From the NCBI GenBank assembly GCA_051362555.1, contig CM120640.1:23174225-23238224 (forward strand): DNA of 64,000 nt, given 5' to 3'. The position numbers were made by a program, and so were the translations under genes. A model generated the notes under the pieces. The model had not been told where the DNA came from and did not search any database. It saw nothing but the letters and a program-made list of their open reading frames with translations. This DNA comes from Lingula anatina. Its lineage: Eukaryota; Animalia; Brachiopoda. Shown piece by piece: positions 6,391-43,050 of the stretch (the stretch's first letter is position 1; each line of letters starts with the position of its first letter).

Positions 6391-7119
6391 CCTTAACCAC
6401 CTTAACATATCTAATAAATAAGACTGTTAACAATAACAACAGACGCAGGTGACGGTTATATGCACAGACACATCTGTGTCTGTACATAAAAACAAAAAAG
6501 GGAAAAACACTCACTCACACTTGAGAGAAAATGCACATCAGCCTTAGATGAGAAACACGACAACCAAACAAGCGTGACGTAAATAGGGCATATGAAGGTT
6601 TTGGTTCTAGCCTCAAAGGGCATTCAACTTTCAAAAACGACCTAGAAACATGGGGTTAGAGGAATATGACAGAAATGAAAAGAGAGTATGACATGGTGGT
6701 ACTAACCCATCTCCAGCTTGGATTTCAGTCCATTTACGATTAATTTTTTCTTCAGCGCTTATTCGACGTCTAAGAGCTGAGTGTTATTTGTACATGTACA
6801 TTTCCCAGAGCGACGAGTTCGCGTGGATTGAAGGGTCAAATTCAGAGAAGCACACCATGAGGAAAAGACGAAACATTCGATGTTTTGTGCTAGTAAAGAA
6901 ACTATCCTCAGGTTCGATGCATTGGCGTAGGATCACGTGAGATTTGAAGGCGGTTGCCCGAAGAAAATCTCTCTCACTTCTCGTCCTTTGTACTCCTCTG
7001 GAGTGAAACGCAACATGTTCGCAACTGCTTCACAATTGCCCGCTCTTAGACTTCCAATCTTAGATTGTCGGCTGGGGGCGTTGCTGTGGTCACCATCTTG
7101 TCAGTTTGAACTCGGGGGT

Positions 7120-22525: not shown

Positions 22526-23462
22526 TTAACATGCTAGCACTATTTCCATGATTAAAGAAAAGTGTTCAGCAAAACTTAAAGTTATGATAAGTACTAGTTG
22601 TGTTGTAATAAGTTATTTTATTTACATATTTTAATGTGTTAAAATATGACGAGATAAACAGAATGATGATACCAAACATGATATACTTTCTCAAATGGAA
22701 CCATTCACTATTCCACAAAGATGTGGTTTTAACATTTTGTGATTTATATGAAATTTTTGGTAAAATAGTCATATAAACAGTTACATGGAAGACAAAACGA
22801 AAAGAGTTCATGAAAATCATAAAATCCTTATCACCTGAATGCATTACATTTTAATGCATTACATTTAATTAAAATGCATAAAGATAAATAAATTGTCGAT
22901 TAACAATAATGATTCAGTAAAAAAAGCAAATGAACAGATTTAATTATGTATCTGTATGACATAGAATAAAGTATGAATAAATTCTAGCACAAAATGAAAA
23001 TAGAGATTTCATAATATAATTACAATTTGTCTTGAAACCTTCAATGAGTTCATTAAACATATCCATTTTTAGCTGTACGGCTTTTATGTAAGATACAACA
23101 TATGCACTGCAGTCTACAAACTTGTTCAAATGTATTTAATTAAAATTACCTCACAACGTTAAATGAAAACCATTATTGGCTTTGAATATTTACTAACTAG
23201 TCCAATTTCCATTTTGTATCATTATATATCAGTGGAAAATTAGATTTACAACTAGTATTAGTAATGTACCTTGGATAATACTGACACACAACTGCAAAAG
23301 ATAAATCCACTTGAATTCAAAACAGAGAAAAACTCTTACAACTCTTTCGGTGATCTTATTTCTATTCCTTCAGAAAATGCAGTCTTGAATAAGCAATTGT
23401 GTTAACAAATTCTCTTTGCTGTTAACTGATTCCAGTGGGCAACAGAAGTAGTCCATGTAAAT

Positions 23463-26400
23463 CTACAGCCGAATCCTGAAAGAACTGCAAGCAAAAGAAA
23501 AATATGAAATTACCTCAAATCACTCTAAATAATGTATAAACAGAAATATTAAAGTTTTTTTTGTTATGTAGGACACTTACAACAAATCATTACTTACTTA
23601 CAACAAATTACTTTCTGTTATGTAATAACAACTACTAGATTTATTTTAATTCTTAAAAGTTATTAATACAGCCTCAGTTTATCAATAGAATAATCAAATC
23701 TGCATTTTCAATACTGTATAAATAATTTACATTTGCAAAACAAATGATAAGCAAGCAAACTACATATAGGCAAATGTCCACTCTCCTTTCACCACCACGC
23801 AGTAAGGGACTTAACAGATGGATTAACAGAGGCCAAACATTGTGAATAACTTTCACAGAAAACTAATGTTTCTATATATGTGTCATTAGGTTTGACTGTG
23901 ATCTGACTCTTCACTTCATTCTCTGCAATAAATAAAATCAGTAAAAAGCCCAGATGAGTGAGGAAAATGTGTTGCAAAGAGTCACAATCTATTTCATATA
24001 ACAGAAACAATAAAAAGCAAGTGTTTACTAAGGCAGCACACTATGAGCATTATAAATAATGCATAAAATGTTAATCATAAATAAGGTAATCAAAGAAAAA
24101 GCCAGTGTTTCAATTACAAAACCACTAGTGATGGAGAGAATAAGTTTAGGAAAATTGTCAAACAAAAACTGTGTCAAGTAGCAGAACATGCTTCCATAAA
24201 AGAATTGATTGTGCGCAATATAAAATGCAGAAAACAATATGCAAACATTAACTTCCATGCAAATACCAAATTGAGATAAAAAAAAACATTAAAGACATAA
24301 TACCAAAAGATAAAACCCATGCAAAAACAAAAACAGTTAAAAAGTGCTTGCCACAGTTAAAACCAAAATCCAAACCAATGTGTGCAATTGTTTATCACGA
24401 GACAAGTCTTACTTTGTGAAGTCGGGAGCTTTAGACATGACATGTTCAAATTCAGCATATGACAAGTTTTCGTCTCCATCTAGATCTACCTCACTGAATA
24501 TCTGCAGTAGCGACAGAACAGAAATGCAAAAGAGAACAAAGATTTACACAATGAACTAAAAGCACCCATGTAAATGCCAGTCGCAAATACATGCAAAAAG
24601 CCCAAGCTGTATGAAAATCTGTCAAATCAAATCAATTCCTGCTAGCACCAAAACAAATACACTGAATGCCCATTACATATGATAAAATAATATGAAGCTG
24701 CCCTGTAACTGAAGCCTGTAAATAAAACATGCTTAGTAACATGTGTTGTCAGGATTGTGTACATCGAAGAGATGTAATGATATACTGTCCTGTATATACA
24801 AGATATATGCAGTTTTTTGTAGGAAAAAATGCCCAAAATTGACTTCAAGTGTTGAAGAAATACAATTTTCAGTACACTAATCGTGACAGCAATGTACTTG
24901 ATAAGCGTAAGAAACATGGCAGCAAAGCTGTCAAATGGACAGACATATTAATGAAAAAAATTGTTCAAACGGTAAAATTATGGACAACCAAATTAAAAGG
25001 GAAAGGGCACAAAAAGTGTTAATGATGCAAGACCCATAGGAATGAGAAAAAACGAGAAAGAAAATTTTTTTCATAACTAAAAGAAAAATAATAAATAATC
25101 CAATCAGGCTGGCATTCAAATTAAACTGCATTTTAGTCCTATGGATCATTTTTGTAAATTTGAGAACAATTATTCTTTAACTGTGTTATTAAATAAAAAA
25201 TTCAAGGAAAGAGTGCAAACACAGCAATGTGAGAGATACTGGTGATAATATTATGTACAGACACATTGTGTCTGTCCACAATAAATCCATGCCTAAAGAT
25301 TTTCAGCACAACCCAGCAGTCTTACTTGGTGAATTCTGGAGCTTTGGACACGAGGTGGTCAAATTCAGGAAATGATAATTTTTTATCTCCATCTATATCT
25401 ATTGCTCTGAACATCTACAGTAGCAACAGAAGAGAAATGCAAGAGGTGTTACAGAAAAACAACACCTACACAATGAACTAGAAGCACCCTTTGTAAATGC
25501 AGATGGTTAAATTATATGCATATACAACTGAATAATATCAACTCCTGCTAACATCAAAGCAAGAACAATGAATGCTCATTCTATATGACAGAATAATAAT
25601 AAGCTGCCCAGCAAATGAGACTTTGAAATAAATGCTTAGTAATATGTTGTCAGGATTGTGTGCACTGAACCAGTGGGATGACTTGCATATAAACTATAGT
25701 GCCAAATAGTATATAGGCAATACATAGCTTTTTTTGCTTGTTTTAAAGAGAAAAAGCTACTTGAAATGTCAGATTCACTTTTCAGTATGCATGACAGCAA
25801 TGTACTCATACAGCATAAAAAACAAGGCAGCAAGGCTCTCAAATGTACAGACATATAACTGTCAAAAGAAGCAGTGACATATAACAGTCTGAAAGTATGA
25901 ATCATGCACTACTTTTATTGTGGAGATTCAGACACAGTGTAAGACTCATGGGAATTCAAAGCCACACCTAGAAAGTGTCAATTTGTAAAAAAAAATGAAA
26001 AACTTTAAAAGTTTGGGAAAAATAATCCACCCTTTTTTAAAATTTGAGCTGCATTTTGGTCCTATGAATCATTTCTTTTGGTTTGAAACTAACAAGTAAC
26101 AATTTTCCTTTATTGTGTTGTGAGGAAAATACATTGCTGAGAAATGCACAATTTGGAAAGTGCACAGTGATGAAGGCAAAGGATACAGGTGATGGCTATG
26201 TATGTCCAGACACACTGTGTCTGTCCATAAAGAGCAATGATCAAAAGCATTCAAGCAAAACTATTGCAGTAGAGGTGGGGGGAGAGAAGCTATAATCTTG
26301 TTATTGGACCATACTCATTCTAGTGCTTACTTGACGAAATCAGGTGCTTTAGATATCACATGCTCAAACTCAGCAAAAGACAAACTGTCATCATCATCCA

Positions 26401-29400
26401 AATCTGCTTCTTCAAAGATCTGTTAGAAAATAACACAAGAGAAAAGCTGATTGAAATTATAAATCAACCATGCAACCATGTCTGTGAATAGAACCTTTCC
26501 CAAAGATACCAGTACAGGGAGTCCAAATGGGGCAAAAATAATGTTAACACAATTTCTATGGGAGTCTAACAACGCCAGAATGCTGTGCATGTGAAGGGGT
26601 GGGTGGATAACAAATGCAAATGTGTGTGTGCGTGTGTGTGTGCGTGTGTGATAGTACTTTGCCTCTTTTAAAACAAAATAATTTTTGAAGTGTCTGACAA
26701 AGTGAAAACAAGCCTAGCAATAATGATAGGAAGGCAGCATATTGGCAATAATTGAGAGGAGTAGCCGATAAGCCTTGCTCAACTCTGCACTGGGGATAAC
26801 TGATTGTTACATGTTCTAGCATCTGGAATATGAAAACATTTGCACAGTTATTAGAAGAGCAAAAAATCACAGCAGCAGCCACAGATGCAAGTCAGCAATA
26901 TGTTTTCCTGTTCACCTTCATTTTAAGCTATTCAATCTTCAAAAAGTACTTTTCATGTACTTTCACACAACTGGGTATGGATCAAATAATCAGGATACAT
27001 TAAAATACTTTCTGAGAAATATCCAATTTGTCCCCATGTCCCAACAATTTAAGCAGTCATATCTGCAAAATTTTGCAAGCCATCCACCAGTATTCACAAT
27101 TGTCAAAATGTGTGTGTGTGTGTGTGTGTGTGTGGTGGGGGGGGGGGGGGGGGGGGATATTCTGAAGAAATTGGTAATTCAAATGGCTGCTGTATAGGTC
27201 TCTGGCACAGAAAGCCCTGGCAAGAACGTACAGCAACTTGTCATGCTGAAATGCTCCACAATGAAGGAAAAACACTGCCTTTTATTTGACATGCTTTACA
27301 ATTCATCATGAAACTCTTATTAAGTGATGGTGCAAGTTTGACAAATTCTCTCTTTTGTATTAGTCAAGAATGAGCATCACACTTAATCCTGTCTGAAACT
27401 GAATAATAATAAAGATCCACAAAATATTTAATGTTTAAATAACATTATGTTCATCAAAAGTATGAAATGTCACCCCATCAAATTCAGCAAATGTTCACAC
27501 AGTAAAAAAATTAATATACAATTATCTTATTAATAAGTTATACTAAATGTCTTGCTTCGTTCAGTCTGAATGAACATGTAAAACCAAGAGCACACACAAA
27601 ACCTTATGTGATATACCATTTATATTCAAATATGTTTAAATTCAACATTTTTCTAACTGTAAGAAAGATGGCACAATACACCACAAGAACTTAATTTAAA
27701 AAGATTACAGAATTGAGGGCAATAAATGGCTCCTTTTTTTATATAATTCAAATTTTTACTCTTTCATCCACATCTGACACCTCAAATTACTGCAAGAGTA
27801 CCCACAGAAGGTCCTACCCCTAACTTACATTATCAATGAGCTGCTGCATGTCCTCTTCACCAAGCCTCTGATCTCCTGTCAGTCTGTCTATCACCTCTTT
27901 TAGGTCATTGCTACTGATCATGTCATCTTCATCAAAATCTGAAATACAGTGCTCATGGAAAGCTATTGGTAATAACTTAAACATTAAAAAATACTCATTG
28001 GCTGACATTTAATGCTCTCCAGTAAATTTTTGTTCATCTGACAACTAGGACATGGCACGGCATATTATACAGTATCACATAAATTCAAAAATTTAATATG
28101 ATTTGTCAAGTTGTGAAGAGGATGTACATTCCTCAGTTTTTACACATAAAAACTAACAGTTTAATACATTCTACATTAACCGTACATATGCTGTTATGCT
28201 ACTTTATTTATTCATTTGTAACACTAAAACCTAAAACTAAAATATGTGAGCTTTTTTCACTTTATCACTCACCATATATCCTGAAAGCATATTCCACTTT
28301 GACATTCTTTGGTGCATTATCACTGAACACTGACATCATATCTAAGAAGTCTTCAAATGACATGCTGCCATCACCACTCGAGGAAAATACCTTACATATC
28401 CGATCTTTGAAAGGATTTACCTAAAATAAAAAATTCTTTTCCAGGAACATTTGTAGTGTAAAATAAGTTGCAAAATTAACTATAAAAGTGCAAAATTGGC
28501 ACAGATGTACAGGGCTTGTCCACAAATTGTGCTGCAAAACAAAAATGGGAACAAAAAAAAATGTCTGTTCAACAAGTTCAGCTGGTGTGAATTTATTCAT
28601 CTGCATCAATTTAACTCTTGTTAATTCTTACCCTTAGTTCTGGTAACATCATGATTTTATCTTGTGGTAGCGTGGCATTTTTGTCCACTTCAACCAAGTC
28701 TGGGGCCAGCTGTGTGAACCTCTTGTGTACACTAGATACAAATTTAAATTTATAAATCACCAGAATTTATCACACACCCAATCTGTACAGAAATATTTAT
28801 TTTGTCATATAGATTTAAATGTCTTAAATCAACCCTGAATGATAATTCCTAATAAAGTATAAAATAAATATTTCGAAGATAATTGGTTAAAAATTTTATT
28901 AATGCTGTAATGCATTTAAAGTTTATTTATTTGGATAGATTCTTTACAAGTTTGAAAAATTAACTGAATATCTATCATGTATGAACTTTACATCTTCTTT
29001 TAAATGTTGATAAAAAGCATAAAAATAATTATAGAGAAAAACCAATGAGTAATCATCATTTTTAAAAGATAGAGGAAAGAGCTGACCAGTTCAATATCTT
29101 GTCATGTCCTCCAAAAATACTCATATAATGTAACCCAATAAAAATGTTTTCAATGTATATCATATATACAAAGATTTGCAATCAAATGTCTTAAAGACAT
29201 TGATATAAATTAACTTACTGTAAAATTTCCTTTTTTGTGAAGTATGTCAGCTCCTGAAAAACAAAAAGACACAATAAGGTCTAAGATTTTCACAAATGTG
29301 ATCAGATTAACCATTTATGAAACTGTGGCTCATGGATATTACATGGACCTTGAGCACTCAGCTGGCTTATTCTGACATAAAGATAGCAGGAAAGCAAAAA

Positions 29401-30389
29401 CATTCTGAGGGTAATATTATGTGCAAGATGAGGCAAACTACAAAAGCAAAAACTAAATATAAATTGCATATAAATACTTGTTTCCTTAAAAAGCATATAT
29501 TCTCCATTTTTTAAAAAGAATCATTGACTGAGTAAACCACTTTCAATCTGGAAAGCAGGGGCTGGTGTACGTGATGGTGAATACAAAAGTGGCAGAAAAG
29601 TTTACTAATGACTATATTTTCAGTAATGTTTCAGAGCTTATTCCAATTGAAACTATCCCTCTACATAGATCAATCCAACTCGACAAGGACTCTCGCTTAA
29701 TGCAATCAGTTTAACCAACTGTTGCAACTCCTTGGTTTAACAGATTAACACGCCTTCTCCTGGTGATGAGTAAAATACAGAAAAGTTAATGACTATACCA
29801 GTACCTTAATTGGAATCTAGCACTCCTATTGAAGATTCTGATATGTACTGGTTAGCACAGCCAGAACGTATCAGAATCGTCAATAGGAGTGCTAACACAT
29901 GAATTTTCGTGCTACTTGGAAACAAGAGGCATGTTAATCTCTCAATTTGATTGCATTCAGCTAGAGTCCCCAAGGAGTTGGATCGATCTACGCAGACTGA
30001 TAGTTTCAAATCGATGGGAATGAGCCCTTATAGATTCATCACTAACCGATCAAAGTGGTGACCAAGCAATTTCTTATTCTACCTAAACACACTTATGATA
30101 ATATGAATATAACAGGATAAATTAAATGTCTTGGATTATTTTCATTTGTTTTGGTTACTTGCCAATTGCATTGTAATTTATCTTTTGTAATTGTCAACAA
30201 GCAGCCATTACACCTGTCACCTGTGGAATCCAAACCCGTTTTGAAGCGGTTTCAACGCCTTTTTTGCTATATATATTAGGAACGCAAAGAAAAAAGTTTA
30301 TCTTATTGAATAAAAGCAGTTATAATACATTACACTACCTGATAGTCTTCAAGTTCTTGTTCATCGAACTTGCTGTCGGAGCCTCCCAT
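23463..30389 (-). CDS. CIB1: Calcium- and integrin-binding protein (CIB1/CIB4-like), 184 aa, with three alternative copies of exon 6
   Basis: Exons 30389-30339 ([17 protein letters not shown], myristoylation-type Gly2), 29253-29219, 28731-28632, 28420-28273 ([33 protein letters not shown]), 27938-27829 ([11 protein letters not shown]3), one 89-nt exon 6, and 23484-23463 (NSFRIRL*). Total 555 nt in frame. Orthology to CIB1 versus CIB4 is not resolved. Confidence 0.92.
24413..24501 (-). CDS. CIB1: CIB exon 6c (alternative EF-hand 4)
   Basis: ctgcag|[29 protein letters not shown]|gtaaga; 89 nt, phase 0-2, no stop codons. Confidence 0.8.
25326..25414 (-). CDS. CIB1: CIB exon 6b (alternative EF-hand 4, most divergent variant)
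   Basis: ctgtag|[29 protein letters not shown]|gtaaga; 89 nt, phase 0-2, no stop codons. Confidence 0.75.
26331..26419 (-). CDS. CIB1: CIB exon 6a (EF-hand 4, most acidic variant)
   Basis: taacag|[29 protein letters not shown]|gtaagc; 89 nt, phase 0-2. Confidence 0.9.
29634..30027. mobile_element. MITE with long degenerate terminal inverted repeats (PIF/Harbinger-like ends) in CIB intron 1
   Basis: gagcttattcc..ttgaaactatc..tagatcaatccaactc..ggactct.gct.aatgcaatca (29634-~29708) is the reverse complement of tgattgcattcagctagagtcc..gagttggatcgatcta..gatagtttcaa..ggaatgagccc (~29948-30027). Flanks are tca / tta. A related fragment lies at ~42960-43050. Confidence 0.7.
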
Positions 30390-30399
30390 TTTGAGAGTG

Positions 30400-30720
30400 T
30401 GTCCGTGGCCTACTTCTTGCCTTAGTTTACCTTGTCGACTGACGTCATTACTCCCAAAACATGCCAGATGGCGGATTTTACAAGATAAGAAAAGTTCAAT
30501 TGTGAACGTTCCTGGATACTGTATTCGTAGGGTGCAGAGTAAAATGACAATACATTAGTTGATCTACTTGAAACTTTTTCAAACAGTCGGACCGATAATA
30601 TTTTAGAATAATAGGGATTTCTAAGATATTTTGTGCAATAAACACTCGGTTTACCTTGTATTGCTATTAAAGCGCCACCTAGAGCTATCATCTGATTCCT
30701 CTGGAGAGTGAGTAAGTCTC
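30400..30720. promoter_or_regulatory. Bidirectional CIB/VPS28 promoter with CRE, YY1-like and CTCF-like motifs
   Basis: The CIB ATG (30389, minus) and VPS28 ATG (30816, plus) are 427 bp apart. TGACGTCA at 30440-30447; AGATGGCGG at 30466-30474; agcgccacctagagc at 30671-30685 (minus strand GCTCTAGGTGGCGCT, CTCF core-like); VPS28 5'UTR exon donor gtgagt/gtaagt at 30708/30712. Confidence 0.65.
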
Positions 30721-30815
30721 CCTAAATAAAAATAGGATGTGTCAAAGTTAGGGACACATCATTTTATACTAAAACGTTTATAGCAAGTTTAGGGAAAGGG
30801 GAATAAGAAGACACC

Positions 30816-42959: not shown

Positions 42960-43050
42960 ACCAGTTTTCTATATTCTACTCAACACCAGGAGGAAGCATA
43001 TTAGTCAGTTTATCTGATTGCATTCAGCAGGAGTCCTTTTGGAGTTGGTG
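42960..43050. mobile_element. Fragment of the same repeat family as the 29.6-30.0 kb MITE
   Basis: Its reverse complement, ccaactcc..ggactcctgctgaatgcaatcag..tcctggtgttgagtagaatatagaaaa, matches ~29675-29790. Confidence 0.6.

Follow-up and report, generated by a model that had tools for sequence, protein, structure and literature searches.

Three tandem EF4 exons in a CIB calcium-sensor gene of Lingula anatina, two of them spliced singly into mRNA

Introduction

Can a single gene of a calcium-sensor family make several sensors by exchanging the exon that encodes one of its metal-binding loops? This question is raised by a 64,000-nucleotide (nt) stretch of the genome of the brachiopod Lingula anatina (assembly GCA_051362555.1, contig CM120640.1, positions 23,174,225 to 23,238,224; this whole stretch is referred to as the window, and positions below are counted from its first letter), which carries on its minus strand a gene of the CIB family with three homologous exons, 6a, 6b, and 6c, each encoding the fourth EF-hand (EF4). 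A first-pass annotation of the window claimed that the three exons are mutually exclusive, and that the one gene makes three sensors with different properties. The cluster proves to be genuine and belongs to a familiar class of mutually exclusive exons; 6a and 6c are expressed, and the three-sensor claim is weaker. The reading that we regard as probable is that this CIB gene has three tandem EF4 exons, of which 6a and 6c are spliced singly and 6b is intact but unseen, and that the swap likely fine-tunes calcium sensing instead of switching it.

Organization of the exon cluster

Exons 6a (26331..26419), 6b (25326..25414), and 6c (24413..24501) lie on the minus strand between the constant exon 5 (27829..27938), which encodes the EF3 loop, and the coding part of the last exon 7 (23463..23484), which encodes the end of the C-terminal tail and the stop; both flanking exons are supported by the gene model and by junction reads. 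Each copy is 89 nt long, is preceded by a polypyrimidine tract and AG and followed by GTAAG, has intron phase 0 upstream and 2 downstream, and contains neither stop nor indel, and the annotated coordinates, splice signals, and phases all proved exact. The three pairs share 58, 62, and 69 of 89 nucleotides, and 15, 21, and 16 of 29 residues, respectively. A tblastn search of the window with exon 6 returned these three as the only full-length copies, and together they make up a tandem array of homologous exons alike in length and phase.

Inclusion of any single copy gives a protein of 184 amino acids (aa), the joining of any two shifts the frame and gives a product of 182 aa that ends at a stop 73 nt short of the last junction, and skipping of all three gives 168 aa with a stop within the last exon. 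The frame shift had been taken to allow only one exon per mRNA; the shift itself is real, but a frameshift alone predicts decay of the transcript and does not block the joining.

The introns between 6a and 6b (25415..26330) and between 6b and 6c (24502..25325) are the first and second copies of a duplicated unit of intron and exon, recognized by their homology to each other (65% identity over ungapped columns). Their 17 gap openings bear out the earlier description of co-duplicated introns with indels, although this homology is restricted to the 6a-6b/6b-6c pair. Because 6b and 6c have a duplicated intron in common, 6a may be the ancestral exon and the source of the first duplication, with 6b and 6c produced later when about 900 nt of intron and exon were copied.

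Exon use in RNA

We analysed 8 of the 9 RNA runs listed under the species label, reading 6-30% of each run, and listed a junction if it had 3 reads from 2 starts within a run; one read mapping accepted reads at 85% likeness. Summed over the eight runs, 273 reads join exon 5 to 6a and 305 join 6a to exon 7, making 6a the major form overall, and the corresponding numbers for 6c, the expressed alternative, are 40 and 31. Each of the two appears in 7 of the 8 runs, and 6a is hence not the only copy ever included. Joins between two copies (6a-6b, 6a-6c, 6b-6c) and the exon 5-exon 7 skip were unlisted in these runs, against 649 single-inclusion junction reads. In mature RNA, 6a and 6c thus exclude each other.

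The same cannot be said of exon 6b, for which no junction was listed in any of the 8 runs at this threshold. Its share is at most about 2 reads in 80 in each of the runs with the greatest depth. Splicing between the common flanks, exons 5 and 7, is thus read-backed for 6a and 6c, and comes from a RefSeq model only for 6b; mutually exclusive use holds for two of the three copies, and the claim that one gene makes three sensors is not supported for the third.

The heterozygosity of L. anatina (1.6%; PMC4595640) might raise the suspicion of an assembly artefact or merged alleles in place of real tandem exons. We consider this extremely improbable, as the copies differ by 22-35%, far beyond allelic levels, spliced reads link one exon 5 and one exon 7 to both 6a and 6c, and all three exon-6 peptides of the RefSeq models sit on one 338-kb contig.

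Three further observations concern the reads. The introns of the cluster (23485-27828) have low same-strand coverage in most bins in the runs of studies P1 and P2, with none in the bins of introns 2 and 4, possibly a sign of slow splicing or of intron retention. Both duplicated introns contain a 33-nt element (24913-24945 and 25821-25853) that is matched in part by hundreds of reads; since these reads have unrelated flanks in all 8 runs, the element is a fragment of a transcribed dispersed repeat. Runs X7-X9, which carry the same species label, show many fixed substitutions and indels relative to the window over 22600-30800, which suggests a strongly diverged population or cryptic species.

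The EF4 exchange at the protein level

The first-pass annotation has the C-terminal helix gating the target groove of CIB1, a point that the literature passages checked did not state; in the Lingula gene, it is the constant exon 7 that carries most of the C-terminal tail. The metal sites of CIB1 are EF3 and EF4, as the first-pass annotation had stated, and EF4 is its high-affinity calcium site with a Kd of 0.5 uM (PMC8999013, PMC11900603). All three exon-6 loops contain the ligands D1, D3, D5, S9, and E12, and the isoforms would all bind metal at EF4 through this same set. The net exon charges of -9 (6a), -2 (6b), and -7 (6c) are as annotated; for the 12-residue loop alone they are -6, -2, and -5, placing the expressed loops of 6a and 6c one charge apart.

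Outside the ligands, which are the same, 8 of 29 residues differ between 6a and 6c. Among these are Ala153 and Ile170; in a set of 88 homologues chosen by exon 4, each of the two is conserved in 81. The non-ligand changes of the 6c loop are Asp4 to Gly, Asp6 to Glu, and Ser7 to Asn, and in the helices Ala153 is replaced by Val and Ile170 by Met. In 183 other CIBs, a wide range of residues occupies loop positions 6 and 7. Judging from these residues, the 6c substitutions would most likely cause a modest shift in affinity or in packing of the C-lobe. The 6b loop has lysines at positions 6-7 and a proline at position 11. Structure prediction for the 6b isoform from its single sequence was uninformative (predicted local distance difference test score of 36).

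The lysines, proline, and charge of -2 in 6b could lower affinity, as would be expected if the cluster were a true calcium on/off switch in the manner of alpha-actinin or of CIB1 versus CIB2, with one isoform calcium-insensitive. We regard such a switch as quite improbable. No ligand is lost from any of the three exons, whereas in ACTN1/ACTN4 calcium binding is kept by only one exon (PMC9741552), and lysine at position 6 occurs in 15 of the 183 other CIBs. The lower affinity of CIB2 has been attributed to EF4 positions 9 and 12 and to changes in EF3 (PMC8999013, PMC11900603), with N169/E172 in CIB1 and G165/D168 in CIB2 at the two EF4 positions (PMC8999013). These two are constant (Ser9 and Glu12) across 6a, 6b, and 6c, with Glu12 as in CIB1. 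The proposed parallel with vertebrate CIB paralogues does not extend to the ligands: the Lingula gene obtains EF4 diversity through exon choice in one gene, with positions 9 and 12 constant, unlike the difference between CIB1 and CIB2.

Selection of one exon per transcript

Under the 50-55 nt rule of nonsense-mediated decay (NMD) in vertebrates, a double-inclusion transcript, whose stop precedes the last junction by 73 nt, would be expected to be degraded. The skip form is predicted to escape decay, as its stop is in the last exon, yet it is unlisted, so exon choice is likely regulated, and this suggests active selection of one exon-6 copy. In Caenorhabditis elegans, 14 of 19 exclusive clusters with exons not divisible by three are partly reliant on NMD (PMC4165533).

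Among possible mechanisms, steric hindrance is unlikely given the length of the intervening introns (916 and 824 nt). Pairing of a docking site with selector sequences (PMC6071210), of the type known from Dscam and 14-3-3zeta, was rejected, as none of the duplexes between a flanking and an internal intron was stronger than those in 5 shuffles. The only strong duplex in the cluster is between two copies of a dispersed palindrome, which form hairpins downstream of 6a (26192..26238) and downstream of 6b (25249..25283). Their cross duplex (-41 kcal/mol, against -34.5 for the local pair, with loop cost ignored) is predicted to enclose 6b. With a third copy elsewhere in the window (near 6446-6490, 83% identity over 47 nt) and no better conservation than other intron blocks, the hairpins are probably a repeat remnant. 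A role as a selected splicing element was not supported, as this third copy and the comparison with six other intron blocks (0.25-0.70 as the chance of finding such a block) override the uncorrected p of 0.002-0.009.

An RBFOX protein may take part. On the minus strand at 24187..24323, 90-222 nt downstream of 6c, there are two TGCATG and one further GCATG, which are candidate RBFOX sites. Of the five TGCATG hexamers in the cluster, two lie 90-152 nt after 6c, one precedes 6a by 55 nt, another precedes 6c by 94 nt, and the fifth is in mid-intron; introns 1-4 have none. In C. elegans, UGCAUG is present in 11 of 29 exclusive clusters (PMC4165533). An RBFOX protein at the candidate sites after 6c and before 6a may favour 6c in some cell types, a weak lead only.

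Taken together, these elements would allow a more elaborate scheme of three distinct sensors made by regulated choice, with 6a as the housekeeping form, 6c driven by RBFOX in muscle or nerve, and 6b, with its basic EF4 loop and changed packing of the helices, as a low-affinity or other-partner form that the repeat-derived duplex loops out and so keeps off in most tissues. We think this combination unlikely.

Evolution of the exon copies and the status of 6b

Exon 6a is the family-typical EF4 exon. It has a median of 25 and up to 29 of its 29 residues in common with the 88 homologues, and is identical at 29 of 29 to mollusc CIBs. Between 6a and 6c, the proportion of synonymous differences (pS) is 0.92, meaning that synonymous sites are saturated, with a nonsynonymous proportion (pN) of 0.16. 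We further simulated neutral change from candidate ancestors and scored the products by the family profile. The profile score of 6c is reached with P=0.001 and that of 6b with P=0.046; by this measure, 6c is under purifying selection, and 6b only weakly so.

Exon 6b is the most diverged copy, and its lack of listed junctions is what would be expected if the cluster were a two-way switch between 6a and 6c, with 6b a silenced pseudo-exon that drifts neutrally and is still unbroken. Near-fixed family residues have been lost from 6b, including Glu19, which is present in 88 of 88 homologues; on one neutral branch, the lack of indels (P about 0.42) and the retention of AG and GT (P about 0.40) are unremarkable; and the flanking repeat-derived hairpins could loop the exon out. 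On the other hand, 6b keeps every metal ligand and 8 of 9 family-invariant residues, and its generic EF-hand score is as high as that of 6c (Pfam EF-hand_1, 24.9 bits for 6b, 25.7 for 6c, and 19.0 for 6a). The neutral chance of having no stop and such a profile score is 0.046, and multiplied by those for no indel and intact AG/GT it becomes about 0.008, although it was its intactness that drew attention to the exon in the first place. Over the last 280 alignment columns ahead of its acceptor, identity to the 6c side is 77%, compared with 53-65% in two upstream blocks, and a RefSeq 6b model exists, the read support of which is not visible. A silenced 6b is conceivable, if on balance doubtful, and from its sequence we take the exon to be somewhat more likely a rare functional one, restricted to a tissue or stage, than a dead one.

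It is also possible that the isoforms are functionally equivalent, the duplication having been fixed by drift, and purifying selection serving only to keep a working EF-hand in the exons that are used. The identity of the ligands in all three copies, the single charge between the expressed loops, and the free variation of loop positions 6 and 7 among other CIBs are in line with this; moreover, purifying selection on 6c is no sign of new function, and no conservation was found outside Lingula in the sets searched. Still, equivalence appears rather unlikely, since 6c has residues absent from all 88 homologues at two positions (Val5 and Asn12), the synonymous saturation between 6a and 6c implies that both have been kept for a long time, and, in the six runs that have over 20 junction reads, the share of 6c lies anywhere between about 1% and 70%.

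The reading we favour, that of three tandem EF4 exons with a fine-tuning exchange, has to be held against several results. Together with the lack of listed 6b junctions, these are the changes in 6b, the weakness of the TGCATG signal, and the limits of the read counts. The number of amino-acid changes in 6b is as neutrality predicts (P=0.48, simulation), and at 8 positions it has residues found in none of the 88 homologues. The 6b-6c comparison (dS 0.57 and dN 0.22, the synonymous and nonsynonymous divergences; dN/dS 0.38) fits one constrained and one free branch. The excess of TGCATG (5 against 1.8 expected, P=0.036) is small and was noted post hoc, and one of the sites is upstream of 6c. The 6c share of upstream junctions is 29/70 (about 41%) in study P2 and 8/239 (3%) in study P3, a contrast confounded by the many fixed differences of the P3 animals from the window; this divergence could also hide 6b reads, despite the acceptance of reads at 85% likeness. 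Within P2, the difference between runs has p=0.38 at the upstream and p=0.0002 at the downstream junction, mates may be counted twice, and the tissues of the runs are not labelled. Given the disagreement within P2, the divergence of P3, and these caveats on mates and tissues, the difference in 6c share is no proof of regulation.

Family identity and database models

The remaining coding exons of the gene, all on the minus strand, are exon 1 (30339..30389, with the ATG and Gly2, joined by reads to exon 2), exon 2 (29219..29253), exon 3 (28632..28731), and exon 4 (28273..28420). The first three are supported by the gene model and junction reads, and exon 4 by reads and by 100% identity to a Lingula anatina CIB record (P0002). 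In comparisons with solved structures, the 6a form reaches 195 bits with human CIB1 (PDB 6ocx), 180 with C. elegans CALM-1 (7usw), 179 with CIB2 (8z3f), and 159 with CIB3 (6wu5), and 79-116 bits with calcineurin B/CHP structures, below the CIB1-3 range of 159-195 for full-length similarity. It shares with CIB1-3 and CALM-1 a full-length alignment, Gly2, the EF3/EF4 loops, and a short C-terminal tail. The EF3 and EF4 loops in the C-lobe are intact, and Pfam EF-hand matches are present in all three isoforms. On this sequence evidence we assign the gene to the CIB family, within which similarity cannot place it with CIB1 as opposed to CIB2/3.

RefSeq holds XP_013404294-XP_013404297 as Lingula anatina CIB1 isoforms X1-X4, of which X1 contains 6a, X2 contains 6c, X3 contains 6b, and X4 (protein P0122) skips all three and is a model without EF4. 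These models differ from the window by one residue in exon 5, and the window therefore most likely represents another allele or assembly of L. anatina. X1-X4 are database gene models; the exon anatomy comes from the window, and read support, for X1 and X2 only, from the runs. No report of mutually exclusive exons in a CIB gene was found in the literature searched, with subscription journals and bioRxiv supplements outside that scope. CIB is mentioned 0 times in the main text of the Lingula genome paper PMC4595640 and in three text supplements of PMC13121700. As had been suspected, and within the reach of these searches, the cluster has no precedent in the CIB family, although its isoforms are already database models.

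Two observations were made around the start of the gene. In stranded runs, the region immediately preceding the CIB start (30546-30800) has reads of the opposite orientation, which suggests a head-to-head plus-strand transcript and a shared promoter. Within CIB intron 1 (29450-30009), opposite-orientation reads cover inverted repeats that also match 42965-43048, and this is probably a small transposon.

Distribution in other animals

We compared all pairs of 186 stored proteins with an exon-6-like segment for signs of an exon swap. Among the 257 pairs with a near-identical upstream 70 aa, the exon-6 swap signature was present only in 3 Lingula pairs, and cluster look-ups of 20 proteins gave no such signature outside Lingula. 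A protein search with the 6b C-terminus returned a Lingula record as its sole candidate (1/1), and a search with 6c returned 28 other CIBs at 70-83% identity with no exact 6c match, both among 90%-cluster representatives only, which hide isoforms. No other named brachiopod or phoronid was among the matches listed (120 of 288). In a metagenome scan, 8 loci were found, of which one genomic locus (L006) has a single exon-6 copy, but extends only about 450 nt beyond the exon. The cluster is thus apparently restricted to the Lingula lineage, as judged from sequence listings without another named brachiopod or phoronid.

As a side observation, three CIB records of the oyster Crassostrea virginica (P0086, P0098, and P0125) differ along their length as well as in EF4, and oysters may instead diversify the CIB family by gene duplication.

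Comparison with known systems and significance

Known mutually exclusive homologous exons are likewise tandem paralogues of equal length and the same phase, with one used per mRNA (PMC9741552, PMC4165533, PMC6071210). Similarly, in known tandem exon substitution the exons are not a multiple of three, double inclusion shifts the frame, and the introns are partly co-duplicated. Most human events of this class are described as ancient, whereas the CIB cluster is apparently confined to one lineage, and in the searches made the class had no previously reported case in the CIB family. A further likeness is with the alpha-actinins ACTN1 and ACTN4, in which mutually exclusive duplicated exons also replace part of an EF-hand (PMC9741552). 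Actinin has two copies, one of which loses calcium binding, whereas the Lingula CIB gene has three, all with their ligands.

Interest in this cluster is limited by the fact that its mechanism class is well known, its isoforms are already in RefSeq, and any functional difference between them is at present a prediction. It nevertheless brings this mode of exon duplication into a conserved family of calcium sensors with an otherwise almost frozen EF4 exon. If the gene did make three biochemically distinct sensors, it would offer a natural three-way EF4 swap within a single protein background for testing the non-ligand tuning of CIB targets, e.g., TMC channels. The isoforms offer a natural test of how non-ligand EF4 residues bear on metal and target binding, and, with 6b and 6c introns that can still be aligned, the locus is a usable case of a young duplicated exon becoming regulated or silenced.

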